The notes beneath the pieces were generated by a model. The model did no database searches and was not told where the DNA came from. It was given only the letters and a program-made list of their open reading frames with translations. A stretch of 63,908 nucleotides of DNA, filler included. It is 7 parts of 7 records of this genome, joined end to end, with 100 filler letters (N's around TTAATTAATTAA, not from the genome) between each part and the next. Parts side by side here need not be neighbours in the genome. Positions count along the whole stretch, not along the records: positions 22,914 to 31,398 come from SRR31156797_40060; 6 more parts are not named here. One strand, given 5' to 3'. Every line of letters starts with the position of its first letter. Within the stretch, counting starts at the first letter, position 1. Positions 17,557 through 58,896 of this stretch are shown here, one piece after another. The position numbers and the translations under genes are program-made.

Positions 17557-17656
17557 NNNNNNNNNNNNNNNNNNNNNNNNNNNNNNNNNNNNNNNNNNNN
17601 TTAATTAATTAANNNNNNNNNNNNNNNNNNNNNNNNNNNNNNNNNNNNNNNNNNNN
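17557..17656. other. Artificial contig spacer
   Basis: N44-TTAATTAATTAA-N44 (stops in all frames); base composition changes abruptly across it. Confidence 0.98.
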
Positions 17657-18705: not shown

Positions 18706-20403
18706 CTATAAAACTCCTCCTTTTTTCTCTAATGTATCGTAGTTATTATCCAAATTCGTCCAATCAACTTTTGTGGTAGGATCTATACCGTTAATGTATT
18801 TTTCAATGTTTGTATATCCATCGCCGCTTATATCTCCATTGACGTCAGAAGCATCATTTGGATTTAAACCGTACTTCTTCTCCCAGGCATCAGGCATTCC
18901 ATCGTTATCAGAATCTTTGTAAGCTATTCCTTTGTATTCAGGGTAGCCTCCAACTTGTCTGATATCCGTAATAATTCCTTTTTTCCAGGAGTCCGGACCT
19001 AAACGTCTGTGCTCAAATTGGTATATGTCTTTAATTTCAGTATAATCAGATTTATCTATTTTACCACTACGTACCTGTTTAACTATTCGTGAATCAACCG
19101 GGTCTCTTTTCGGAAGCGTTGCACCAACGTTATTAAGTACATATTCATATGCCTCTTGAGTTTCCATAATGGTTACATAAGGCATTAAAAAGCGTTTTGA
19201 AGATCTTATTTGTGGCAGATATTCACCTGCTCCGTCCATATCATTTTTTACCTGAACGCCTTTCCAATTATCCTTGGTAATTTCAGGGTATCCTTCCATA
19301 ATATTTCCTTCAACCCATACTTTACCAAAAATTTTTGTGCCAAATAATTCATAACGCGATTCTGCCTTAATCAGACGGTGTCCTACAGGTGCGTTTTTAG
19401 GCGTAACAGGCCCCGGCTTGTAATAGTTATTAATTAACTGGTAACGCGACGAATAACTTCCTCCATCGGTTGTACGGTGAGACCAGTTATGAATAATGTT
19501 ATTTACCAGGTTAAAGCCGCCATCCATTCCTACAGATGGATTTCTTCCCGTGTTGTTGGCCCATAAATTTCGTGCAAACATACAGTTCTGTCCTCCTAAG
19601 GTGCTACCCAAAGAATGGTTGTACGTGTCAAGCGCTTCAGAGAAGATACTGTTTTGAATGGTAATGTTAACGGTTGAGAATTTATGACGTCTTGCTTTGG
19701 GGTTATCTTCATCGTTGCAAAACATATGACGATACATACTCATATTTTCATCCAGTCCCCATGATGCCGAAACGTGGTCGATCATGATGTTACCCACCGG
19801 ATTTCCTCCAATTGCGTCTCCATCTGCGCGACGGCCAACCCAAGTTTCACCTCTGCGGAAACGCATATGACGGATAACTATATCGTGTGTATTGATACAA
19901 AATGTTTCTCCGGCAATACATATCCCATCACCCGGCGCTGTTTGTCCGGCAATAGTAATAAAAGGGGCATCAATATTAATCGGACGTTCCAGTTTTATTA
20001 TCCCGGCCACATTAAAGACTACGATTCTAGCTCCACCAGCTTCGCATGCTTCACGAAAAGTACCGGGGCCACTATCGGCCAAACTGGTAACAACATACAC
20101 TTTACCACCACGCCCGCCATAGCTGTACATACCACCACCTTCGGCACCAGGAAAAGAAGGGATTTCGGCCTGTGGTAAATCATCAGAGCGTTTTGCCCAT
20201 TGGTTATAGGCTTTATCGTTCTGCATGTCTTCATAAATTTTGGGCCATGCTTTCTCAAATGCTTCGTCTTGTAACACTTGCCATGCGGCTTCCAAAGAGT
20301 CAATAGTTGCTTGTATTGAATCTGTTTTTGGGTATTGCGCATTTGATTTGTGACTTAATGAAAGTACTATTGTTATTGCGATAAATGTTTTTAGAATTTT
20401 CAT
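18706..20403 (-). CDS. Pectate lyase (PL1-like)
   Basis: SFPGAEGGG...GGRGG.V..VTSL.DSGPG, TIAGQTAPGDG, IDHVSASWGLDE, RNP; C-terminal DSDNDGMPDAWE. Confidence 0.88.
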   Translation of the reverse strand: MKILKTFIAITIVLSLSHKSNAQYPKTDSIQATIDSLEAAWQVLQDEAFEKAWPKIYEDMQNDKAYNQWAKRSDDLPQAEIPSFPGAEGGGMYSYGGRGGKVYVVTSLADSGPGTFREACEAGGARIVVFNVAGIIKLERPINIDAPFITIAGQTAPGDGICIAGETFCINTHDIVIRHMRFRRGETWVGRRADGDAIGGNPVGNIMIDHVSASWGLDENMSMYRHMFCNDEDNPKARRHKFSTVNITIQNSIFSEALDTYNHSLGSTLGGQNCMFARNLWANNTGRNPSVGMDGGFNLVNNIIHNWSHRTTDGGSYSSRYQLINNYYKPGPVTPKNAPVGHRLIKAESRYELFGTKIFGKVWVEGNIMEGYPEITKDNWKGVQVKNDMDGAGEYLPQIRSSKRFLMPYVTIMETQEAYEYVLNNVGATLPKRDPVDSRIVKQVRSGKIDKSDYTEIKDIYQFEHRRLGPDSWKKGIITDIRQVGGYPEYKGIAYKDSDNDGMPDAWEKKYGLNPNDASDVNGDISGDGYTNIEKYINGIDPTTKVDWTNLDNNYDTLEKKGGVL

Positions 20404-20601: not shown

Positions 20602-22296
20602 TTATTTAATCAAATCCTTCGCTGACAAAGTGTTTTTATTATTGCTTAAGTCGGTCCAGTCAATTTTTTTTGTTGGATCAATACCGTTGATGTATTTTTC
20701 AATATTCGTATAACCATCTCCGTTACAATCTTCGTTGGCATCTGATGGATCATTCGGGTCGAAACCTAACTTTTTGTATTTCTTTTCCCAAGCATCAGGC
20801 ATACCGTCTTTGTCAGAATCTTTGTATGGTTTCCCTTTATAATCAGGGTAACCACCAACCTGGCGGATATCAGTGATAATTCCGTTTTTATAGGAGTCTT
20901 CTGGTAAACGGCGATGTTTGAACTTAGGAACATCCGAATTATCAAAACCCTTAACGTATTCCGGATTCCCAGTTTTTACTGTACGACTAATTCGCTGATC
21001 AACCGCATCGCGTATTGGCAAAGTTGCTCCTGCATTTTTCAGCACAAAATCAAAAGCTTCTTCCGCTGGAAGAATAGTCATGTGCGGCATTGGGGCCGGT
21101 TTTTCAGCCCTAATGTATTTTGTGAACTCACCGGCATCGGGCATGCTCTCAATTTGAACACCACCGTCCCAGTTGTTTGCTGTTACTTTTTCGTTACCCT
21201 CAACAATATTTCCATTTACATAAACCGAACCGTAAACCTTTCTGCCATTCATTTCGTAACGCGATTCAGGTTTCAGAATACGGTGACCAACTGACTTACT
21301 GGTTGGCGTTAGCGGACCAGGTTTAAAGTAGTTATTAATGATGTTGTAACGGGCCGTATGGTCGCCACCATCAACCGAACGATGAACCCAGTTAAATACA
21401 ACATTATTGGCAAAATTGAAAATTCCGTTCCAACCAATTGATGGGTTTCTTCCAGAATTATTTGCCCACATATTGCGGATAAACGAACAATTTTCGCCAC
21501 CCAGGGTACTTCCAAAAGCATGATTCCAAGTATCTAAAGCTTCAGAAAAAATGGAGTTTTGAATGGTAATATTTACCGTACCTAGTTTTACTGCTTTTTT
21601 CCTCGGGTCTTTCAAATACATATGACGATACATCGACATGTTTTCATCTGAACCCCAGCTTGCAGAAATATGATCCATCATAATGTTACCGATTGCGTTT
21701 CCACCAATCGCATCATCGCGACGTCCGACATTGGTTTCGCCTTTACGAAAACGTACGTGACGAATAATTACATCATGAGTATCAACCCAGAAACTCTCAC
21801 CTGCCACACAAATACCGTCGCCCGGTGCGGTTTGACCAGCAATTGTAATGTACGGTGCACGCAGCATAATTGGTGACTTTATACGTATAATTCCCGAAAC
21901 ATTAAAAACCACAATACGAGCTCCACCTGTTTCGCAAGCTTCGCGCAGGGTTCCGGGACCACTGTCTTCAAGACTAGTAACCGTAATTACTTTTCCACCA
22001 CGTCCACCAAAGGTGTACATGCCTCCGCCTTCAGCACCCGGAAAGGCCGGAATATCAGCTTGAGGCAAATCGTGCGGACGAGCAGCCCAAGGAATATAAG
22101 GTTTTCCCTTTGCTGCCTCTTCCTCAATAATGGGCAATGCTTTTACCCATGCCTCTTCAGAATGAGCATGTGCTTTGGCCATCATTTCGTTGGTTGCCTG
22201 TTTTACTGAATCCGGTACCTTTGGGTACTGTGCATAAATACTACTACTAATCAAAAATAAGACTATCGCTATCTTAATATTTTTTAGTCTTCGCAT
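20602..22296 (-). CDS. Pectate lyase (PL1-like), tandem paralog
   Basis: Same motif set as 18706-20403 (AFPGAEGGG, AGQTAPGDG, DHISASWGSDE, RNP, DSDKDGMPDAWE). Confidence 0.88.
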   Translation of the reverse strand: MRRLKNIKIAIVLFLISSSIYAQYPKVPDSVKQATNEMMAKAHAHSEEAWVKALPIIEEEAAKGKPYIPWAARPHDLPQADIPAFPGAEGGGMYTFGGRGGKVITVTSLEDSGPGTLREACETGGARIVVFNVSGIIRIKSPIMLRAPYITIAGQTAPGDGICVAGESFWVDTHDVIIRHVRFRKGETNVGRRDDAIGGNAIGNIMMDHISASWGSDENMSMYRHMYLKDPRKKAVKLGTVNITIQNSIFSEALDTWNHAFGSTLGGENCSFIRNMWANNSGRNPSIGWNGIFNFANNVVFNWVHRSVDGGDHTARYNIINNYFKPGPLTPTSKSVGHRILKPESRYEMNGRKVYGSVYVNGNIVEGNEKVTANNWDGGVQIESMPDAGEFTKYIRAEKPAPMPHMTILPAEEAFDFVLKNAGATLPIRDAVDQRISRTVKTGNPEYVKGFDNSDVPKFKHRRLPEDSYKNGIITDIRQVGGYPDYKGKPYKDSDKDGMPDAWEKKYKKLGFDPNDPSDANEDCNGDGYTNIEKYINGIDPTKKIDWTDLSNNKNTLSAKDLIK

Positions 22297-22813: not shown

Positions 22814-22913
22814 NNNNNNNNNNNNNNNNNNNNNNNNNNNNNNNNNNNNNNNNNNNNTTAATTAATTAANNNNNNNNNNNNNNNNNNNNNNNNNNNNNNN
22901 NNNNNNNNNNNNN
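22814..22913. other. Artificial contig spacer
   Basis: N44-TTAATTAATTAA-N44. Confidence 0.98.
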
Positions 22914-22916
22914 CCA

Positions 22917-25349
22917 TCATCGGGGGAGGTCCAGCTTCCCCGACCGTTTCAATTCCTTCCACAAGAGCTTGGGGAAACGATTGCCGAAACGACGGGACAG
23001 GACGGGCAGGCCGGCACCGATGATCGCCCAGACTTCACCGGCATCCCGTCTGCGATTTTGCTCCAGGGCATCGGTCCAATACCCGATCAAATTGGCATTC
23101 CTGTCCGGCATACGGTCCAGGGCGTTAAAATGTTGTTGATGGCACGCGAAACGGACATGGTCGTACCCTTCGGCGATCCGGCTCATCAGGCCCAGACCGT
23201 CCCGGATCCGCCGGGCATCGGGCCTTTTCAAAGAGAGCATCAACCCGGAAAAAATCCCGGCTGTCTGGGAAGTGGGGTACCCGATATCCACGGTCAGCCG
23301 TTCCAGCTCGTCCAAACAGTCGCTGTCGGTCATATCGAGGACCCTCTGCATGCTTACCGGCGAATCAAGGCCCACTGCGGCGCCTTCGCGGAACAATTCA
23401 AACGACGCATCCCAATCTTGCATCCAGGCCAACCAACCGGCCAACCAGAACAAGGCTTCCGACTGCAGGTACGAATCTTCGATGGTGCGGGCCACCGTGG
23501 CAAGCGCTTCAAACGTCTCCGTTTTTTGCACGATGGCGACCGCCTCCGCCAAAAAGCCGATGGTCCGGGCCACCGTATTCGGGTCCTCCTCGGTGCGGAT
23601 CGCCTCCACGGCGGGCGGAAATACCGACCCGGCAAGGCCGACGGCCCCACCGCAAGCAAGGGTGAGGGCCAGGTCGCTCAATTGATCCGCTGCCGATTCA
23701 CCGGCAGCCATTTCCGCAATGAGGGACGTTGTCAGGCCAATGCCATCTGCAACCTTTTCCCCGGGGTCGAGGGTGGCCTGCCACAGGGCCAGGATGCCTT
23801 TGGTATTGAGCCGCCTCTCGGTGGGGGGGTGATCGAGGGCTGCGGTCCGCAGGATGGCCTCGGCTTCCATGGCGCGTTCGACGGCGCCGGTCAGGCGATA
23901 TCCCCGGATCAGGCCATAAGCCAGCTCGGCCTGTGCCCAATGGTTCCTGCAGGTTTCCAAGCGTGTCCGTATCCAATCCAGGCCCGGCACATCTTTGAGA
24001 TCGCCCAGAATCCAGGCCAGCCGCCGGAGAGCCTTGATCTCCTGCCAGTCATCGATGGACGGCCCCCACTCAAGGGCCTTTTTTATGGCATCTTCTGCCC
24101 GCCGATAAGCACCGAAGGTTGCCAGGCCAAGGGCGATGACACCCCAGTCGGAATGGTTCAGATCGGCAGCGTTCGCTTTGCAAAGCCCGTCGAGGATGGC
24201 CACGATTTCCGACTCGCAGCCGATTTGCAGCATCGCCGGTCTGGCGCGAACCAGCTCTTCAATAACTGGAAGGAACGCTTTATCAAGCGTGACTTTCGGT
24301 AATGTGGAAAGCAGATGGATCAGTTCTCGCCCGTCGGGGTTCCTCCCCTGCCGTCGATCGGACCGTGCATGGGCGATTTCCAGCCGGATACGCTGGACGG
24401 GCGTCTGTTCCGAACCGGCCAGCTTGCCGGCTTCGCTTCGCCTTCCGCTGCGGGCCAGTAGCAGGACCAAATGGTAAAAATCCTTGGGGTATTTTCCCTC
24501 CGGCCACAAGGCCAAGGTTTGATCGAGCAGTTGGCCGGCCAGTTCACCATGGCCGACGGACAGGGCTTGTTCCGCCGCTTCTTTGAAAGCCCGGAGCCTG
24601 AAGTACTCATCTTCAAAGGCCGCAAGCGCATCGAGGATTCTCTCCATGCTGCCGACAACCGCCCAGACCGCCGATCGGGCGGTGTGCGCCGCGGAACCGA
24701 CGCCCCCGGTCCTGCGGATCTCTTCCCGAATGCGCATTTCAACGTTCTCGGCCAGTTCCCGGGCAGTGGCAGGCTGACCGGCCTTGTAAAACGCATGGGC
24801 CAGCGAGACCGCCCGGTCTAGATCGTCATTGAAAAAATCGGATCCGGTGGCCAGCCACTCAACCCTTGCCAGGTCCAGGGCCTGCCTTGCACCGGCCTGG
24901 TCCTTGAACGCGAGGCAGGTCAGGCCGATTTGCGTCAGTGCACGGATACGACGCAGAGGCTTGGGAATGCCTCGTGCCCGTCGAAGGGCCTGACCGAGGC
25001 CGCCCGTTATGGCCATGGCTTCCAGGGCGCGAACGGGTAACCGTACGACAGTCCAGCCCCTTTTGCTGCTGAGCCAGGCAACCACCGCCTTACAGATTAG
25101 GTAAACCGCAATTCCCGGAGCGGAACCCTCATCGATGAGCGCGTTCAACTCGTTATCGAGGGCCCGGCAAACCAGGTCGAGATCTCTCTGGTAGAGCATA
25201 CCGCTGGCATCCTCGTGGATCGAACGGCCAGGCCATCGGCAGTGGGTTACCAAACGGTAAAGGGAAGCGGTCTTTCCGGCTTCCTGCAAGTGGGCACTCA
25301 GGTATCTGACGCCGAACGGGTCCGTTTTAAGTGTGGAATCGGTCGGCAT
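22917..25349 (-). CDS. STAND-type helical domain (HD2-like) plus TPR-like solenoid, no NTPase
   Basis: Starts DPFGVRYLSAHLQEAG..SLYRLV...W...LYQRDLD, followed by Ala/Leu-rich helical repeats. Own SD TAAGGAG. Confidence 0.75.
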   Translation of the reverse strand: MPTDSTLKTDPFGVRYLSAHLQEAGKTASLYRLVTHCRWPGRSIHEDASGMLYQRDLDLVCRALDNELNALIDEGSAPGIAVYLICKAVVAWLSSKRGWTVVRLPVRALEAMAITGGLGQALRRARGIPKPLRRIRALTQIGLTCLAFKDQAGARQALDLARVEWLATGSDFFNDDLDRAVSLAHAFYKAGQPATARELAENVEMRIREEIRRTGGVGSAAHTARSAVWAVVGSMERILDALAAFEDEYFRLRAFKEAAEQALSVGHGELAGQLLDQTLALWPEGKYPKDFYHLVLLLARSGRRSEAGKLAGSEQTPVQRIRLEIAHARSDRRQGRNPDGRELIHLLSTLPKVTLDKAFLPVIEELVRARPAMLQIGCESEIVAILDGLCKANAADLNHSDWGVIALGLATFGAYRRAEDAIKKALEWGPSIDDWQEIKALRRLAWILGDLKDVPGLDWIRTRLETCRNHWAQAELAYGLIRGYRLTGAVERAMEAEAILRTAALDHPPTERRLNTKGILALWQATLDPGEKVADGIGLTTSLIAEMAAGESAADQLSDLALTLACGGAVGLAGSVFPPAVEAIRTEEDPNTVARTIGFLAEAVAIVQKTETFEALATVARTIEDSYLQSEALFWLAGWLAWMQDWDASFELFREGAAVGLDSPVSMQRVLDMTDSDCLDELERLTVDIGYPTSQTAGIFSGLMLSLKRPDARRIRDGLGLMSRIAEGYDHVRFACHQQHFNALDRMPDRNANLIGYWTDALEQNRRRDAGEVWAIIGAGLPVLSRRFGNRFPKLLWKELKRSGKLDLPR

Positions 25350-25402
25350 TAATGCTCCTTATCTGTAATCTGGGTTCAGACGGACTTTGCACGGTCACCG
25401 TC

Positions 25403-26935
25403 TCATTGGACCGGGTCGAAGATGTCGTCCGGTCCCAAATCGATCTGCTGCATGTAAAAATCGGCAATCTTGCCGTGGGAGTGTTTCAAACCGGGCTCGA
25501 TTTCATTGTATAGAAACTCCTGGAACAAGGTGTGGTAGACGCGGTAGAATTCGCTGCGTTCCTTTTTGCTGTATTCCGTATGCAAAAACGGGTACCAAGT
25601 GTAAATTGCCTTGCAGATGTCCAGCGGGGCAAGCCCCGTGAAGTTGTGGATCTGGTCCAGGGATACCGCCTTCTTGACGGCCGCTAAAATGCAGACCACC
25701 GGCTGGTAGAGGATATCGAACAGGCCGGCATCCCTGCCACGCATCTGTTTCCAGTGATGGCGGTAGTAATTCAACAGGCCCCGGGGCACCTCGACCAGCC
25801 TTCCGACCTTGAAGTCGCCGTCCCGAACCGCGGGCAGCACATGGCGCAGGTACATGAAATTGCCTTCGCTCTTCTCCACCATGGCCTCGATAAAAGAGGG
25901 CTCATCCACGCCCCAACCGGCAATACGCTCTTGCATCATCGGATCTTTCAGGCTGCCCTCAACGTAGTGGGCCGCATCTTCCCGGTTGTTCTGCGAATCG
26001 GCTTGGAGGTCGAAAATCCTCAGGTTCATGACCCGCAGGGGCATCTCCTTGAGGCGTCTGCTGGTGGCGACGACATAAACCCGTTCCGGCAGCGCTTCGG
26101 GCAGATGCAGCAGGTTGGCATCCGGCCCGGCATCGGTGTTGTCCACTTCATCCAGCGCATCGACGGCAATCACGATTTTTTCGCCGTCGGGCAATTTTAC
26201 AGCGGATTCCGCCAGAAGCCGGTTGAAAACACGGCCGTCCCGGGTGGCATCCTCCGGCAGGTCCGCATAGGGCAGCGCATACCTGTCGATGAGCTGGGTA
26301 CAGATATTTTTCAGGAAATGTCGCGGCCGGTTGATGGATTGCGGCCCGATATTGAAATGGTGAAGGTATCCCCGCGTGCTCACCAGTTGCGCCATCACGG
26401 CCGACTTACCGATTCCCGGATCTCCGGTGATCAAAAAGTATCCGTTTCCCTCGACATCCTGGGCCAGGTAATCGTCCAGCGCATCGAAGAGGAACTCCCG
26501 TCCGGAAAAATTGCGCGACCGATCTTTCATGAAGGCCGCGAAAGACCCGCTGAATTCGTCCGGTGTGGCCAGGTCCGGCCAGGCTAAGACAGGCGAATGG
26601 GCAATCCGTTCCAGACCAATGTTCTTGGATCCGTCCTTCATCACCTTGGGTTTCAACCGGTAGATCGTATCGTAAAAATCCCTTTGATCCACACGGTCGT
26701 CGATAAAGGCCTGGGCCTCGAGTCCGAAAAAGGCGGCGACCTGGTCCACACGTTTCAGGGGTACTCCCTCCCGTGCCCATCTTCGGATTTGTTTTATATC
26801 GTCATACTCGACCAGGCGGACCCATCGCATGGTGTTGACGATTCCTTCGAAACTAGCCGTACACGCTTGAACGGCGATTTCGAAACGTCTTCCTGCCAAT
26901 TCTGACCGTTCATCCGTTTTGCGCCCTTTTGCCAT
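25403..26935 (-). CDS. STAND/NACHT-like P-loop NTPase with N-terminal HTH-like domain, ending at the winged helix
   Basis: FSGRE, Walker A GDPGIGKS, Walker B IVIAVDALDE, VVATSR, SEGNFMY, VPRGL..YY, WHD YRVYHTLFQEFL. ATG 26935 has SD GGAGG; the track's 27151 start overlaps the WD40 gene. Confidence 0.88.
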   Translation of the reverse strand: MAKGRKTDERSELAGRRFEIAVQACTASFEGIVNTMRWVRLVEYDDIKQIRRWAREGVPLKRVDQVAAFFGLEAQAFIDDRVDQRDFYDTIYRLKPKVMKDGSKNIGLERIAHSPVLAWPDLATPDEFSGSFAAFMKDRSRNFSGREFLFDALDDYLAQDVEGNGYFLITGDPGIGKSAVMAQLVSTRGYLHHFNIGPQSINRPRHFLKNICTQLIDRYALPYADLPEDATRDGRVFNRLLAESAVKLPDGEKIVIAVDALDEVDNTDAGPDANLLHLPEALPERVYVVATSRRLKEMPLRVMNLRIFDLQADSQNNREDAAHYVEGSLKDPMMQERIAGWGVDEPSFIEAMVEKSEGNFMYLRHVLPAVRDGDFKVGRLVEVPRGLLNYYRHHWKQMRGRDAGLFDILYQPVVCILAAVKKAVSLDQIHNFTGLAPLDICKAIYTWYPFLHTEYSKKERSEFYRVYHTLFQEFLYNEIEPGLKHSHGKIADFYMQQIDLGPDDIFDPVQ

Positions 26936-26984
26936 GGACGACCTCCATTTCAATTTGATCTGCAATGAACCCATTTCTTTGCTT

Positions 26985-29378
26985 TTACGAAATTTCTTCC
27001 TCCAGGGAAAACAGGTGAATCCGCCCGGAAGCATCTCCGGCTGCGATAAGGCGTCCGTTTTTCGTTCCATCGATGTCACCGACCCCCACATCGGTGTGGA
27101 TGGCACAAACGGCCGTTCCGTTTCGCCAGTCCCATACATGAATCCACCCACTGTCGGTGCAGGAAATCAACCGGCGATCGTGGGCCGTCAGTTGAATACG
27201 GTCGATCAAACCGGGTTCCCGGTGAACGGGAAAACGGCGGATGCAGCGGCCGTCTTCCAGGGTCCAGGCCGAGATGTGCCCATCATCGGCGGATGCGATG
27301 CAGAACTTTTCATCCGACGTCACGAGGAGTTGATGAATATTCTTTTCGTGGCCATTGAGTTTCATGAAAGGGGCACCCGATTCCAGTTCCCAAATGATGA
27401 TCCGGCCATGATCGTCGCCGCTGACAATACGCATCGTGCGGGGGCACATGGCGATGGCCGCAACCGCCATTTCATGGCCCGAAAGCGTCCGGCGGCTGGC
27501 GGACCGGCGAAGATCCCATATCTTTAGGGTCTTGTCGTCGGAAGCCGTCGCCGCCAGGGGTTGATCCGGATGAACGCACAGATCCCAGATGCCGCCTTCG
27601 TGTTCGGAAAATCGTTTCACGATCCTGCCTTCGTCGACATCCCACAGGATCATCGATCCGTCCGTGGAACAGGAGACGGCCTTTCCGGGCATGGCAGGTA
27701 CGGCTTCGACGGCAATCACGTCGTCCTCATGTCCTGAAAGCGTCTTCACACATCTGCCGCCGTTTACTTCCCACAACCGTATCGTATGATCGTCCGATGC
27801 GGAAAGAAGACGGTGGTCGCCGAAAAAGTCGAAGTGGGTTACCCAATGGGTGTGCCCCTCCAGAATGGACAGGGTCTTCAGGGTAGCGGCCTCATGTACT
27901 TTCAGCAGCCCGTCATTGGATGCCGTAACGAGAAGCCGGGAATCCTGATTGAACCGGATCCTGCTGATTTCATCGTGATGGTCCGCCGCGTGAGAAGAAA
28001 CATTTTTTTGCGGGTCCCAGATACGAACGGAACCGTCCCACGAACCGGAGGCGATCAGGCCGCTGGTTTCATCCCTGTCCATGGTGCTGATCTCGTCGCT
28101 GTGCCCTCGAAAAGAGCCGATCGGGTCGCCACCGTTCACGTCCCAAATGCGAACGGACCGGTCCCACCCGCAGGAAAAAAAACGCGCATCGCGGTCGGAA
28201 AAACAGAGTCCGGTCACCGGCCCGTAATGCCGGAACAGGGAATCGATTTTTTCCCGGTTGGCCAGATCCCAACGAAGGATTTCTCCCTCTTCCGAAGCGG
28301 AATAGAGGGTTGCGGTAGGTTCATGAACCGTGAGGAGGCAGATCCCGTCCCCTTGCCGGTACAAGCGTTCGGGTGCGGTGCCGTCATCAATGGTCAATCC
28401 ATACACATTGCCTTTCTTGTCGCCGGCGACCAGTTTGCCGGGCCCATCCTGAAAGGCAAGGCAGCAGGCAGGCGCTTGCAACCGTTTGGTGATTCCCGTG
28501 AATCCGCCTTCGGGCAATGAATAAAGCGATACGGTTCTATCGGAACGGGCCAGGGCCAACAGATCATCCCCCGAAACAGCCGCTGCCGTGAACCGCCCCT
28601 TTTGTTTGGGGTCGATTGCGGTGCGGGTAAAATCCCGCAGGTCGATCAGGTTGCATCCGCCTTCCAGGCCGCAGGTTACCAGGTAACGGCCCGTGGGACT
28701 GACCACCGAACGGGAGATGGGGCTGTCGTGAACTTTCCGGGAGAAAAGGCATTGACCGTTTTCCAATCGCCATACCCCGACCGACCCGTCATGCGCTGCG
28801 GTGACGATACCCGAGGGGCTTTTGCGCAGGCTTTCGATGTCCGTTGCGTGTGCCCGGAACCGGCACCGCAGACCTCCGGTAGCCATATCGAAAACACACA
28901 CCATGCCGCCTTCGGTACCGGCAACCAGCGTGGTTTCATCCCAGCAGATCACACCGGCGATGGGCTCCCCATCACAAACGACGGTTCGAACCAGGGCTGT
29001 ATCGGCTTTGACAAAACCGGCTGAAAGAGACTTCAGCCAGGGGCGTCGGACGGGCCGTGCCAGCAATCGTCGAATGGCCGCTGAGGTTTCCTTCCACAGC
29101 CGGTTATAAAGCTGTTCCCACAATTGTTCGGGATATGTTTGCAATATGTGGCCGCAAAGATCCAAGGTACGGCCGATCCTTCGAATGCCGGGCCTCTCGG
29201 AGAAGTCATAATCTCCGACCAGGGACAGAGGGTCCCTGCGGGACAGCTTGGTCGCAAGGTATCGAAAATCGGTGAGAAAGCGTTCGGCCTTTTCGGGCTG
29301 ATCGGAGTCGTACAGGTGCTGGATCAGATAATCGAAAAGATACGCTGCGTCACGATGCGTCAGTTTTGAAGGATTCAT
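26985..29378 (-). CDS. Apaf-1-type helical domain (HD2-like) plus about 16 WD40 repeats, no NTPase
   Basis: AYLFDYLIQHL...FLTDFRYLATKL...LVGDY...LDLCGHIL...QLWEQLYNRL...PWL, then GH...WD repeats such as GHSDEIS...ASGSWDGSVRIWD. Confidence 0.9.
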   Translation of the reverse strand: MNPSKLTHRDAAYLFDYLIQHLYDSDQPEKAERFLTDFRYLATKLSRRDPLSLVGDYDFSERPGIRRIGRTLDLCGHILQTYPEQLWEQLYNRLWKETSAAIRRLLARPVRRPWLKSLSAGFVKADTALVRTVVCDGEPIAGVICWDETTLVAGTEGGMVCVFDMATGGLRCRFRAHATDIESLRKSPSGIVTAAHDGSVGVWRLENGQCLFSRKVHDSPISRSVVSPTGRYLVTCGLEGGCNLIDLRDFTRTAIDPKQKGRFTAAAVSGDDLLALARSDRTVSLYSLPEGGFTGITKRLQAPACCLAFQDGPGKLVAGDKKGNVYGLTIDDGTAPERLYRQGDGICLLTVHEPTATLYSASEEGEILRWDLANREKIDSLFRHYGPVTGLCFSDRDARFFSCGWDRSVRIWDVNGGDPIGSFRGHSDEISTMDRDETSGLIASGSWDGSVRIWDPQKNVSSHAADHHDEISRIRFNQDSRLLVTASNDGLLKVHEAATLKTLSILEGHTHWVTHFDFFGDHRLLSASDDHTIRLWEVNGGRCVKTLSGHEDDVIAVEAVPAMPGKAVSCSTDGSMILWDVDEGRIVKRFSEHEGGIWDLCVHPDQPLAATASDDKTLKIWDLRRSASRRTLSGHEMAVAAIAMCPRTMRIVSGDDHGRIIIWELESGAPFMKLNGHEKNIHQLLVTSDEKFCIASADDGHISAWTLEDGRCIRRFPVHREPGLIDRIQLTAHDRRLISCTDSGWIHVWDWRNGTAVCAIHTDVGVGDIDGTKNGRLIAAGDASGRIHLFSLEEEIS

Positions 29379-29398
29379 AGGATTGCTATATGGGCGGA

Positions 29399-31234
29399 TT
29401 AAAACACAACCTGAACCCCACCTTCCACCCACCGTCCCGCCTTGGGCCAGTTGGGGCGGACGATATAATCGGAATCGGTCAGGTTGTAAACATTGGCGAA
29501 CAGGCTATAGCGACCGTAGGATTCGGGAACCGGCAGTTTGGCGGTAATCTTGTAGTCCCAGACGAATCGTTTGTCTCGGGTTTCCGGGTAGCTGGAATTG
29601 TGGTCCACGTAGCGGCCGATCAGGGTATGAGAAAACCATTTGCCCGCATACAGCGCGCTCGCCGTGTAGGTCAGTCTGGGGATATCCGGGATCCTTTCGT
29701 CGGTCTCGGCATCGAATACATCCACGTAACTGCCGCCGAAATAAAGCGTTAGCCCGAAGCTGGAAAGAAGCGTAAGCCCCCCTTCGATTCCCTGCCGTTC
29801 CACTTCCTCGATGTTCTGAAAACGTTCGCTTTCCGCATCCCAGCCGATCAGGTTGTCCACGTCTGCGCGGAAAAAATTGAGGTCGATCTTGAAATAGCGA
29901 AACGGCCGGATCTCGCCCCCGATCTGGTAATTCCAGGCCGTTTCCGCCTCAAGGTCGATATTGCCGTAATTCGGGTCGTTGACCCAGGCCGGCGGAGGCG
30001 CGGAAAAACCGTGTGAAACCTGAGCGCGAAGCAGAGCGCCGAATCGTGAAAATCGGTACACGGCGCCTACCGATGGGCTCACCTGACTTCCGAAGTTGAG
30101 GTTGTCGTCGTAGCGCAAGCCGGCATTGATGCTCAAGGCACCGAAGGTGGCCGTATCGTTCACCCAGAGGGCCCAGTTCCGTGTATCATGGGATTCGTCG
30201 TAAAAAGCCCATTCGTATTCCCCCCAGTCGATATCGAACCCGGCACTCACCGCATGGTTTTCCGAAGCGTCCAATTGGGCGTGAAGGCTCCCCCCCCACA
30301 ATTCATCCTCATAGTCGCTGTAAAGCTCCCGATGATCGGGATAGACATCTTCTATCCGCGTTTCGTAGGCATGGTGCCTTAGTTCGGCCGACAAGATCAA
30401 TTCCGCGACAGGAGAGGTTTCAGCCAGGAGACGCTGATACATCCGCTGCTGTTCACGGTCGCCCCAGAACTCGGGTATGGCTGCCAAAGGCTGTTCGTCT
30501 TCGCCCTCATCAAAAAACAGGGCCAGGCTCATCCGGGTTGCCTCGCCCAAATCGTATTCCAGTTTGCCGTAAAGATTGTTCTGGAGGTATTCGGAATTCT
30601 CCATGAATCCGTTGCTTTTTTCGTGGGCAGCCGATACCAGCCCCCCCCAGGCGTTTTTCCTGCCTGTTACCGTAGCCCGGGTTTTCAGGGTGTCGAACTC
30701 ACCGTAAGAAGCTTTGACATCGGCGGATAACGGCTTTTCAGGATCCGGTTCCTTTGTAACGATATTGACCACGCCACCCAGGGATGATCCCCAGGCCGAA
30801 GAGGCCGAACCCTTGTAAACCTCTATCTTTTCAATGTTCGAAACAGGAAGGTAGGAGAGATCCGTATTGGGATTGGCCGCCATGTTCAGCGGGACATTGT
30901 CCTGATAAATGGCCACATGCCGGGTCTCGGAGCCCTGGATGCGGATGCCGCCGGCAAAACTACCCGGTCCGCTGTTGATCTCCATATAGACACCGGGGAC
31001 ATATTGCAACACCTCTGCCACTGTCGTCGCCGGCAGTTGCTCAATCTCCTCGGCAGTGATCACGCTGACGTTGGCCGTCACCTGCGACGGATCCAGGGGC
31101 GAACGGGTGGCGGTGACCACCATGGGGTCCAGGGTTGCCACCGATCCTTCGGAATCTTCCTGTGAATAGGTTGTTGCTGCGGTCAGAAACAAAATAAACA
31201 GGAACCAGGGACAAAGAACAAAAATACCTCTCAA
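29399..31234 (-). CDS. TonB-dependent receptor (BtuB/CirA-like size)
   Basis: Signal peptide, TonB box DPMVVTATR, plug IEKIEVYKGSASSAWGSSLGGVVNIVTK, C-terminal Phe. Confidence 0.93.
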   Translation of the reverse strand: MRGIFVLCPWFLFILFLTAATTYSQEDSEGSVATLDPMVVTATRSPLDPSQVTANVSVITAEEIEQLPATTVAEVLQYVPGVYMEINSGPGSFAGGIRIQGSETRHVAIYQDNVPLNMAANPNTDLSYLPVSNIEKIEVYKGSASSAWGSSLGGVVNIVTKEPDPEKPLSADVKASYGEFDTLKTRATVTGRKNAWGGLVSAAHEKSNGFMENSEYLQNNLYGKLEYDLGEATRMSLALFFDEGEDEQPLAAIPEFWGDREQQRMYQRLLAETSPVAELILSAELRHHAYETRIEDVYPDHRELYSDYEDELWGGSLHAQLDASENHAVSAGFDIDWGEYEWAFYDESHDTRNWALWVNDTATFGALSINAGLRYDDNLNFGSQVSPSVGAVYRFSRFGALLRAQVSHGFSAPPPAWVNDPNYGNIDLEAETAWNYQIGGEIRPFRYFKIDLNFFRADVDNLIGWDAESERFQNIEEVERQGIEGGLTLLSSFGLTLYFGGSYVDVFDAETDERIPDIPRLTYTASALYAGKWFSHTLIGRYVDHNSSYPETRDKRFVWDYKITAKLPVPESYGRYSLFANVYNLTDSDYIVRPNWPKAGRWVEGGVQVVF

Positions 31235-31249
31235 AGCACGATCTCCAAT

Positions 31250-31398
31250 CTATTTCTCCAAACCGTATTTCTTCACCTTGTCGATCAACGTCTTGCGGCT
31301 GACCCCCAGAAGCTGGGAGGCCTGGCTTTTGTTCCCCGAGGTTCGTTTCAGGGCCAACATCATATAGAATTTTTCCATCTCCGTAAGGTTGAGGCTGG
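31250..31398 (-). CDS. C-terminal Fis-type HTH of a sigma54-dependent activator (5' truncated)
   Basis: Own translation: LNLTEMEKFYMMLALKRTSGNKSQASQLLGVSRKTLIDKVKKYGLEK*. Absent from the ORF track. Confidence 0.85.
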
Positions 31399-31498
31399 NN
31401 NNNNNNNNNNNNNNNNNNNNNNNNNNNNNNNNNNNNNNNNNNTTAATTAATTAANNNNNNNNNNNNNNNNNNNNNNNNNNNNNNNNNNNNNNNNNNNN
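31399..31498. other. Artificial contig spacer
   Basis: N44-TTAATTAATTAA-N44. Confidence 0.98.
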
Positions 31499-43537: not shown

Positions 43538-43637
43538 NNNNNNNNNNNNNNNNNNNNNNNNNNNNNNNNNNNNNNNNNNNNTTAATTAATTAANNNNNNN
43601 NNNNNNNNNNNNNNNNNNNNNNNNNNNNNNNNNNNNN
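43538..43637. other. Artificial contig spacer
   Basis: N44-TTAATTAATTAA-N44. Confidence 0.98.
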
Positions 43638-52941: not shown

Positions 52942-53041
52942 NNNNNNNNNNNNNNNNNNNNNNNNNNNNNNNNNNNNNNNNNNNNTTAATTAATTAANNN
53001 NNNNNNNNNNNNNNNNNNNNNNNNNNNNNNNNNNNNNNNNN
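52942..53041. other. Artificial contig spacer
   Basis: N44-TTAATTAATTAA-N44. Confidence 0.98.
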
Positions 53042-58796: not shown

Positions 58797-58896
58797 NNNN
58801 NNNNNNNNNNNNNNNNNNNNNNNNNNNNNNNNNNNNNNNNTTAATTAATTAANNNNNNNNNNNNNNNNNNNNNNNNNNNNNNNNNNNNNNNNNNNN
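58797..58896. other. Artificial contig spacer
   Basis: N44-TTAATTAATTAA-N44. Confidence 0.98.

Follow-up and report, generated by a model that had tools for sequence, protein, structure and literature searches.

Three genes on one contig

The stretch of DNA analysed here (the window; 63,908 nucleotides, nt) is a pseudo-molecule in which seven contigs are concatenated through 100-nt linkers, and the system in question is a trio of genes that lies entirely within one of these contigs (22914-31398; 8,485 nt, GC content 0.574). The trio consists of a gene for a WD40 protein, a gene for an ATPase of the STAND class (signal transduction ATPases with numerous domains), and a gene for a helical-repeat protein, referred to below as HR, which the initial annotation had called the TPR gene. 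The coordinates of the genes, of the domains discussed below and of the linkers are collected in Table 1. As the initial annotation had described, the three genes are co-oriented; the open reading frame (ORF) coordinates give gaps of 49 nt between the WD40 and ATPase genes and 53 nt between the ATPase and HR genes. On six-frame translation, the whole window encodes a single NOD (the NBD-HD1-WHD ATPase module), a single copy of the N-terminal domain that precedes it in the ATPase (the N-domain), and two starts resembling Apaf-1 helical domain 2 (HD2).

The signals for separate translation reported earlier for the ATPase and HR genes are in place. In particular, the Shine-Dalgarno (SD) sequence GGAGG lies 6-7 nt ahead of the ATPase ATG, and the HR ATG is preceded by AAGGAG and by an in-frame TAA four codons upstream. 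The ATPase and HR frames are offset by 1586 nt (remainder 2); as the two genes are thus in different frames, read-through cannot fuse their products. A GTG at 29432 is a possible alternative, upstream start of the WD40 gene. The protein motifs noted at the outset were also found at the expected places: AYLFDYLIQHL, LTDFRYLATKL, and LVGDY near the N-terminus of the WD40 protein, PFGVRYLSAHLQEAG near that of HR, and YRVYHTLFQEFL close to the end of the ATPase. A scan of the sequence for promoters and terminators returned counts no better than those for shuffled sequence.

Table 1. Features of the gene trio, its contig and the linkers of the window (aa, amino acids; AF2, AlphaFold2; pLDDT, predicted local distance difference test)
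Feature	Coordinates	Strand	Remarks
WD40 gene (putative sensor 1, HD2 and WD40 beta-propeller)	26985-29378	minus	ATG start, 797 aa
Putative HD2 segment of WD40 protein, residues 7-131	28986-29360	minus	APAF1_C and fused-relative matches
ATPase gene (sensor-less STAND, NACHT-like)	25403-26935	minus	510 aa; AAA_16, NPHP3_N
ATPase N-terminal helical domain of ~120 aa, candidate output/adaptor domain	26567-26935	minus	AF2 pLDDT 41-68
NOD module (NBD-HD1-WHD and one further helix), residues 124-499	25439-26566	minus	pLDDT >90; Apaf-1/MalT/NLR fold matches
HR gene (putative sensor 2, HD2-like start and TPR-like helical repeats)	22917-25349	minus	810 aa
HD2-like N-terminal segment of HR, residues 4-162	24864-25340	minus	Post-NOD match in fused relatives
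TonB-dependent receptor gene	29399-31234	minus	Pfam Plug E 6.2e-26; stops 20 nt before the WD40 ATG
Sigma-54/NtrC-type activator gene, 3' end	31250-31398	minus	Last 48 codons and stop; truncated by contig end
Linker N44-TTAATTAATTAA-N44	22814-22913		Contig edge 3 nt past the HR stop codon
Linker N44-TTAATTAATTAA-N44	31399-31498		Opposite edge of the trio's contig
Other contig linkers, N44-TTAATTAATTAA-N44	17557-17656, 43538-43637, 52942-53041, 58797-58896		

A complete switch without a sensor

The 510-aa ATPase is a complete STAND NOD that lacks a sensor. It matches the Pfam families AAA_16 (E 1.2e-10; 42.6 bits, cutoff 32.6) and NPHP3_N (E 9.8e-7, above cutoff). The Pfam NACHT model scores 18.5 bits, which is under its gathering cutoff of 26.7; among the 150 best relatives of the protein, NACHT matches occur in 104 at E ≤1e-3. 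An NCBIfam scan gave nothing useful. The ATPase contains a Walker A motif (GDPGIGKS) and a Walker B motif (VIAVDALDE), and in an alignment of 66 sequences residues P173, G174, G176, K177, D259, and E263 are invariant, while Y467 and H468 of the WHD are nearly so. The segment D259-A260-L261-D262-E263 fits the NACHT-type Walker B signature D[GAS]hDE, as it is worded in the accessible part of the preprint by Kibby et al. (10.1101/2022.07.19.500537).

The AF2 model of the protein has a pLDDT above 90 over residues 124-507. In a VIA-align comparison, residues 118-510 of the model align with residues 112-474 of Apaf-1 (3sfz; Z 18.0, root-mean-square deviation 6.1, 324 residues aligned), and further matches are MalT (8bob, Z 17.5), NLRP3 (7vtp, Z 14.9), and NLRC4 (4kxf, Z 14.2); Foldseek likewise finds Apaf-1 (E 7e-8). 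The claim of the initial annotation that the protein carries a full NBD-HD1-WHD and no sensor is thus borne out, although its stop codon lies 41 aa after the WHD motif YRVYH rather than about 35.

A sensor-less NOD is the usual form of the clade to which the ATPase belongs, and the layout is not unique to the window locus. A search of 1.84 billion cluster representatives returned 5,258 matches to the ATPase at E ≤1e-3 and 951 at E ≤1e-30. Among the 150 best representatives, the C-terminus falls no more than 30 aa from the end of the window ATPase in 134 and is longer in the other 16; a second search, restricted by protein length, gave 99 further proteins, of which 92 likewise stop there. Five database orthologues with the same N-domain are 508-512 aa long. 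The N-terminal domains of the 150 best relatives include HTH_3 (18 proteins), TIR_2 (11), CHAT (10), NNH2 (5), and Trypsin_2 (at least 4), and relative P0045 carries EAD7, while WD40 repeats are present in only 4 of the 150. Taken together, these C-terminal ends and N-terminal domains indicate that a NOD without a sensor is normal for the clade and that its outputs are of the conflict-system type.

Two other arrangements were observed among the relatives. Six proteins of ~600-626 aa (P0002, P0159, P0160, P0161, P0164, and P0170) have an N-terminal NOD and ~190-210 residues beyond it, with a CHAT protease domain on record; their lengths suggest that the CHAT domain is C-terminal, so that an effector would stand where the sensor arm would be. 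P0079, a single chain of 999 aa, has HD2-WD40 at its N-terminus and the NOD at its C-terminus, which corresponds to the gene order of the window.

Two proteins that open with an HD2-like segment

The WD40 protein shows the clearer relationship to the missing arm. Its residues 7-58 match Pfam APAF1_C (E 3.1e-7; 30.8 bits, cutoff 22.8) over profile positions 24-75 of 135. Pfam WD40 follows with E 3.4e-67 and eight significant stretches over residues ~140-797, and WD40/propeller families match the protein at E 1e-67 to 1e-96 (best 2e-96). Moreover, the segment ahead of the repeats matches proteins in which the same modules are fused: residues 18-131 align with residues 486-603 of P0012 (6e-10), which has its NOD at 85-465 and HD2 at 464-615, and residues 12-135 align with residues 595-722 of P0084 (5e-8), with the NOD at 203-557 and HD2 at 569-734. 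P0070 is a further fused relative with a WD40-type segment directly after the NOD. A word-based search with the N-terminus of the WD40 protein found a protein of Desulfosarcina cetonica alone.

In HR, residues 9-162 match residues 602-742 of P0076 (2.8e-4), directly behind the NOD of that protein (231-599). A hidden Markov model (HMM) of the HR type matches P0050 at 641-802 (6e-7), right after its NOD (260-636), and also matches the N-termini of separate downstream sensors in the metagenome loci L009 and L013. The AF2 model of HR is all-helical (mean pLDDT 62.5), and at that confidence Foldseek returns TPR/PPR-type solenoids at E 1e-5 to 1e-3 with low TM scores; TPR_12 matches the sequence at E 0.017, below the cutoff. 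One protein, P0151, was found in a word-based search for HR relatives. The WD40 and HR starts fall in one alignment register.

As judged from these sequence matches, HR and the WD40 protein each appear to open with the remainder of HD2 and to continue into a repeat array; the array of HR resembles a TPR solenoid, and that of the WD40 protein consists of WD40 propellers. The proposal that the sensor N-termini correspond to the segment that follows the WHD in fused STAND proteins is upheld, as both match the post-NOD segment of fused relatives. With respect to Pfam families, on which the identification was expected to rest, AAA_16 on the ATPase and APAF1_C on the WD40 protein are above cutoff, whereas NACHT is below it and HR has no match.

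The position of the cut can be placed more closely. The alignment with the ATPase extends to Apaf-1 residue 474, past what we take to be the end of the Apaf-1 WHD, near residue 450, and the WD40 protein matches APAF1_C only from profile position 24 onward; together, these data suggest that HD2 begins with the helix that closes the ATPase (481-499). The initial annotation had located the break at the WHD/HD2 junction. The chain is indeed split between the NOD and the HD2 arm, but the evidence suggests a cut about one helix inside HD2 and not exactly at the border.

Recurrence in metagenomes and plasmids

The split layout was followed in 28 metagenome loci, of which 10 were assessable, i.e., contained a complete close-family NOD gene and at least 200 nt after it. 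In all 10, a co-oriented ORF overlaps the end of the NOD gene or starts within ~100 nt downstream. A start of the [DE][DE]Y.L..L..HL type is found in eight of these ORFs (L007, L008, L009, L012, L013, L015, where it is weaker, L016, and L018) and is absent from those of L017 and L019. The repeat arrays of the downstream proteins are WD40 in L007 and TPR in L009 and L015; none was detected in the others. The modules are fused in four metagenome loci (L005, L020, L022, and L023).

Six plasmid records were matched, four of them split, one fused, and one broken by insertion sequences (IS). On the plasmid of Pseudanabaena sp. ABRG5-3, a NOD gene is followed by an HD2-propeller gene (HD2 independent E-value, iE, 3e-29), and on that of Rhizobium johnstonii, by a gene for an HR-type protein. 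The Nostoc linckia NIES-25 plasmid is also split, and its downstream repeat ORF crosses the origin of the record. Plasmid pB of Chroococcidiopsis sp. CCNUC1 (L040:4728-9944) encodes a NOD of 451 aa, an HD2-WD40 protein of 880 aa, and a second NOD of 393 aa with almost no N-terminal domain; this plasmid is the mirror case of the window, with one WD40 arm between two switches. The Rhizobium jaguaris plasmid carries a fused gene, and the locus on the Bradyrhizobium barranii plasmid is interrupted by IS elements.

Recurrence in related genomes

Counterparts of the locus were compared in three Desulfobacterales genomes. One of them, D. cetonica, has the same five-gene order as the window: sigma-54 activator, TonB receptor, WD40, ATPase, and HR. 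Identity to the window proteins is 66% for the TonB receptor (L001:3682-5538), 66% for the WD40 protein, 62% for the ATPase, and 43% for HR. In a second related genome, G524, a gene for a 222-aa N-domain protein is followed by the ATPase gene and then by HR (37% identical to the window protein). In a third, G479, the ATPase lies at the start of a contig and a C-terminal HR fragment (51% identity, partial) at the end of another, which fits the order ATPase-then-HR across a contig break. HR is kept in all four related loci, that of the window included, and the WD40 gene is adjacent in two. Consequently, the three-gene order that had been expected in other genomes is present as a whole in D. cetonica, and the ATPase/HR split recurs, but adjacency of the WD40 gene does not extend to the other two genomes.

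Directly after its HR orthologue, D. cetonica has a second split pair, in which the gene for a 489-aa NB-ARC protein (L001:12051-13520; NB-ARC E 9.7e-22) is followed, 4 nt on, by a gene for a separate 572-aa TPR protein (L001:13524-15242).

Accuracy of the sequence at the junctions

Across 22917-29432, the window does not differ from a Logan contig (15,883 nt) of run X1; this run is possibly the source of the window itself and hence is not independent. Run X2, a metagenome from marine sediment that belongs to a different study, has a 274-nt contig that matches 25228-25501 without a difference, a stretch that contains both the stop codon of the ATPase gene and the start of the HR gene. None of the runs listed for the locus is an RNA run. 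Of the two junctions that were to be checked against sequence data, that between ATPase and HR is thus supported by the X2 contig, whereas that between WD40 and ATPase is covered by X1 alone. In runs X2 and X3, both from marine sediment and from one other study, the stretches 25228-25501, 25512-25721, and 27346-27927 recur, identical or almost so, on short contigs, and a close relative of the organism is therefore present in that sediment.

Proposed mechanism and alternative explanations

Information on a possible interaction comes from complex prediction, which covered ATPase residues 124-510 with HR residues 1-230. The predicted complex has ipSAE values of 0.52, 0.51, and 0.55 against 0.00 for the best control, contacts that are at least 73% consistent between runs, and a partner pLDDT of 77. 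In the calibration, only 5 of 78 solved complexes passed at an ipSAE of 0.60 or below, and each of the 4 mismatches that passed also fell in this range. With the collinear fused relatives taken as a prior, the ipSAE of 0.52 was counted as mild support only, and docking of the HR N-terminus on the ATPase is graded as weakly supported by the model. The expectation that ATPase and TPR protein would be predicted to associate is therefore answered by a signal that stands out from the control and carries this low grade.

Against this background, it is probable that the contig encodes an NLR/Apaf-1-like receptor that assembles in trans, with HR as its core sensor and the WD40 protein as a second, optional one. 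HR is regarded as the core partner because none of the four related loci lacks it and because it occupies the downstream position, which is the rule in the family. The WD40 sensor would be optional, as its orthologue is missing in G524 and distant in G479; nevertheless, the presence of one NOD with two HD2 starts, the order in D. cetonica, P0079, and the Chroococcidiopsis plasmid make an upstream sensor plausible. In such a receptor, the HD2 start of the sensor would attach, without a covalent bond, to the WHD and the final helix of the ATPase and thereby rebuild the NBD-HD1-WHD-HD2-repeat architecture that is one chain in Apaf-1. As long as no ligand is bound to its repeats, the sensor would keep the switch closed in the ADP-bound state; ligand binding would lead to nucleotide exchange and oligomerisation. 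Oligomerisation would in turn cluster the N-terminal ~120-aa domains and pass the signal onward, probably by homotypic recruitment of a protein with the same domain.

A wider reading, which we hold more tentatively and consider somewhat doubtful, is that the trio belongs to a large, cross-phylum class of NLR-like receptors that naturally have two components, with HD2-first proteins as exchangeable parts that complete a sensor-less switch of the NACHT type in trans. Here, the WD40 and TPR-like arms would share one switch and compete or mix on the same winged-helix surface, which would make the trio a combinatorial receptor.

Several observations weigh against a trans-assembled receptor with two sensors. 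The sole complex result is the weak one described above. For the start of HR, Pfam gave no family at E ≤1, APAF1_C included, and the link of this start to the other putative sensor is weak: hhalign places HR 4-61 on WD40 protein 3-61 in a single register with E 0.0014 and a probability of only 17%, and the HR-type HMM has no match to WD40-type proteins at E up to 0.1. In the AF2 monomer, HR residues 1-104 have a pLDDT below 50. The ATPase N-domain (residues 1-123), the candidate output domain, has no match among Pfam families or effector-associated domain (EAD) models; a profile search of the PDB returned a chance-level match (E 0.53), and a helix-turn-helix (HTH) reading, raised by an Atlas lead of 0.85-0.87 (mark 0.9), was rejected after hhalign gave a probability of 1.3% against 13 HTH-bearing relatives. 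The ATPase family is also rare in the vicinity of this organism, being found in 3 of 401 genomes sampled from the order, D. cetonica included, and in 2 of 401 from the phylum. In D. cetonica, the ATPase lies in two frames with a shift near a CCCAAAA run (L001:8690-8780), and the protein on record (P0007) comprises no more than the C-terminal half, of 255 aa; this frameshift may be a draft error or real decay. A query with the N-terminus of the WD40 protein found no orthologue in G524, and in G479 the orthologue lies 7 kb from the ATPase, beside a sigma-54 activator gene. Finally, the organism of the window is a relative of D. cetonica, G479, and G524, which are also related to one another, and part of their common gene order is thus shared descent.

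The arrangement in G524 and G479 is what would be expected if HR were the sole cognate sensor and the WD40 protein a neighbour by descent that serves another NOD of the genome or none, with no sharing of the switch; the downstream position of the sensor gene in all 10 assessable metagenome loci points the same way. However, it is the WD40 protein that has the clearest HD2, with APAF1_C above cutoff, and its gene lies 49 nt upstream of the contig's only NOD gene, in an order that is kept in D. cetonica. Moreover, HD2-WD40 followed by NOD occurs as a natural single chain in P0079, and NOD, HD2-WD40, and NOD stand in a row on the Chroococcidiopsis plasmid. A sole role for HR is accordingly considered unlikely, though it is the most serious of the alternatives. 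HD2 contacts keep Apaf-1 closed, and the HD2-first proteins might thus bind the ATPase as inhibitors or decoys in trans, while the sensor-less NOD senses alone. Short-C-terminus bNACHT proteins would offer a precedent, as the accessible part of the Kibby et al. preprint (10.1101/2022.07.19.500537) describes an antiphage NACHT clade with only short C-terminal extensions. The putative partners, however, have large WD40 or TPR-like arrays of the ligand-binding kind and are collinear with fused STAND proteins, and HR diverges faster (43% identity to its D. cetonica counterpart) than the ATPase (62%) or the WD40 protein (66%), as receptors often do; a purely inhibitory role therefore appears improbable.

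The most trivial explanation would be that the three ORFs are pieces of one or two once-fused STAND genes, separated by sequencing errors or pseudogenisation. The frameshifted ATPase of D. cetonica and the existence of fused relatives (16 of 150 with C-terminal extensions) are what such a history could leave behind. Yet the stop and start positions are the same in orthologues at 37-66% identity, every gene has its own SD, an in-frame stop precedes the HR start, and the contig from the independent study is identical over the ATPase/HR junction. In addition, 134 of the 150 relatives stop at the same point, and complete plasmids from cultured strains are split likewise. The recurrence of the same cut in many other bacteria gives the trio the appearance of a natural two-part receptor and not of a sequencing error, and an origin by artefact or decay is largely refuted, to the point of being scarcely credible. 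This agrees with the initial annotation, which had argued against a frameshift artefact: orthologues of 508-512 aa exist in five other lineages, the genes are split in D. cetonica and two further genomes, and the split recurs across phyla.

The N-domain and the probable role of the system

Besides the window ATPase, the N-domain heads the NB-ARC protein of D. cetonica, where it is 62% identical to that of the NACHT-like ATPase over residues 1-111, relative P0004, and the 222-aa stand-alone protein of G524. By analogy with adaptor/effector-associated domains, which are distributed in a similar way, the N-domain may act in homotypic recruitment. The G524 protein (P0252, L044:7227-7895), encoded upstream of the ATPase, combines the N-domain (iE 5.6e-29) with ~120 residues that have no Pfam match and is a candidate partner or effector that would be recruited via the shared domain.

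A role in conflict or defence signalling is the most likely one by analogy, because of the effector domains of the relatives and some of the neighbourhoods. In particular, the neighbours include a PLD-SNF2 helicase and a Roc-COR gene in the metagenome locus L007 and a caspase-family gene in Pseudanabaena. PADLOC returned no full-length match to a defence model; the NOD of the ATPase partially matches STAND_TPR (9.5e-8) and Avs1b (1.4e-4), and HR has no match.

Relation to known receptors

The modules encoded by the trio are those of Apaf-1-like and bNACHT/Avs receptors, and the difference lies in the boundary between polypeptides. In Apaf-1 and in the bacterial single chains of the AP-ATPase-WD40 and NACHT-WD40 types, the order of modules is the same, and in the WD40 protein APAF1_C is likewise followed by propellers. 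In contrast to Apaf-1, the window chain is cut about one helix into HD2, and the HD2-WD40 arm is made as a protein of its own from an upstream gene; moreover, the window NOD is of the NACHT/NPHP3_N and not the NB-ARC type, and there is no CARD. With bNACHT proteins, the window ATPase shares the D[GAS]hDE Walker B motif, and its relatives share the variable N-terminal domains (TIR, protease, HTH). According to the accessible part of the preprint (Kibby et al., 10.1101/2022.07.19.500537), bNACHT genes are rarely found in operons and short C-termini are treated as a sensor class; in the window, by contrast, the missing arm would be supplied by an adjacent gene.

Avs proteins, as presented in the available text of a recent study (Nature 2026, PMC13581612), have a STAND switch and a TPR-like sensor in common with the trio, but the window proteins lack any known Avs sensor or effector domain, and the PADLOC matches are weak. 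The methods of that article, where accessible, mention the analysis of 'split proteins' with adjacent sequences and contain no description of an HD2 split there; clades without sensors of at least 400 aa were left out of one extended-data analysis. Censuses that drop STAND proteins without long sensors would miss a class such as the one proposed here.

APAF1_C/WD40 proteins of the green alga Ulva (PMC8891106) resemble the window WD40 protein in that they start with APAF1_C, continue with WD40 repeats, and have no NOD. In the portion of that article available, a separately encoded NB-ARC partner was sought and none found, and the bacterial matches were fused; the window differs in having a sensor-less NOD gene 49 nt away. 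EAD systems (Kaur et al. 2020, PMC7159879), to the extent covered by the accessible text, also have a small N-terminal domain common to different NTPases and a stand-alone protein, but they split NTPase from effector, whereas the window splits NTPase from sensor. In the literature, we found no account of a split between NOD and HD2 in which the sensor genes lie next to the NOD gene, although supplementary tables lay outside the search and a prior listing is possible. In particular, the accessible portions of PMC13581612, PMC7159879, PMC8195603, the Kibby preprint, PMC10907252, PMC8891106, and PMC5587647 contain no such split.

Work on NLR, Apaf-1, and Avs receptors has dealt with single chains, where the sensor arm keeps the ATPase closed in cis. 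If the trio belongs to a natural split family, the contact between HD2 and WHD alone can couple sensing to the switch, and the family would provide a simple means of exchanging the sensors of a single switch, of use in understanding and engineering NLR specificity. Such a family would also account for 'sensor-less' NACHT proteins and 'orphan' HD2-WD40 and HD2-TPR proteins in databases, the green-algal APAF1_C/WD40 proteins included.

Neighbouring genes and other contigs

Upstream of the trio, the contig carries the TonB-dependent receptor gene and the 3' end of the sigma-54/NtrC-type activator gene. In addition to its position in D. cetonica, the TonB receptor adjoins the ATPase in G479 (L045:1765-3489; 53% identical) in divergent orientation. 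It is a conserved neighbour that travels with the locus, without an evident functional link to a cytoplasmic STAND system. Each of the four related genomes has a sigma-54 activator gene at a distance of no more than one or two genes from the locus (L001:2327-3685, L044:5764-6861, L045:7444-8454, and 31250-31398 of the window). The translation of the window fragment ends in ...SGNKSQASQLLGVSRKTLIDKVKKYGLEK* and can be aligned by eye with the C-terminus of the D. cetonica activator ORF at L001:2327-3685. The activator was considered as an orthologous, functionally linked part of the system; this is unproven, as the AAA+ cores of the three full-length activators are only 37-49% identical to one another.

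The N linkers that flank 22914-31398 mean that genes beyond this contig are unrelated context and not neighbours of the trio. Genes at 18-22.8 kb and from 31.5 kb onward were accordingly ruled out as neighbours, as was a transferred island suggested by the GC jumps at 22.9 and 31.3 kb, which are contig joins with N linkers. The GC content of the seven contigs ranges from 0.397 to 0.574, and they may therefore not all derive from one organism. On another contig, 18706-20403 and 20602-22296 encode tandem paralogous, secreted-looking proteins of 564-565 aa that are unrelated to the trio; one of them has a bacterial TSP3 repeat, and a gene for a DUF3826 protein adjoins the pair.

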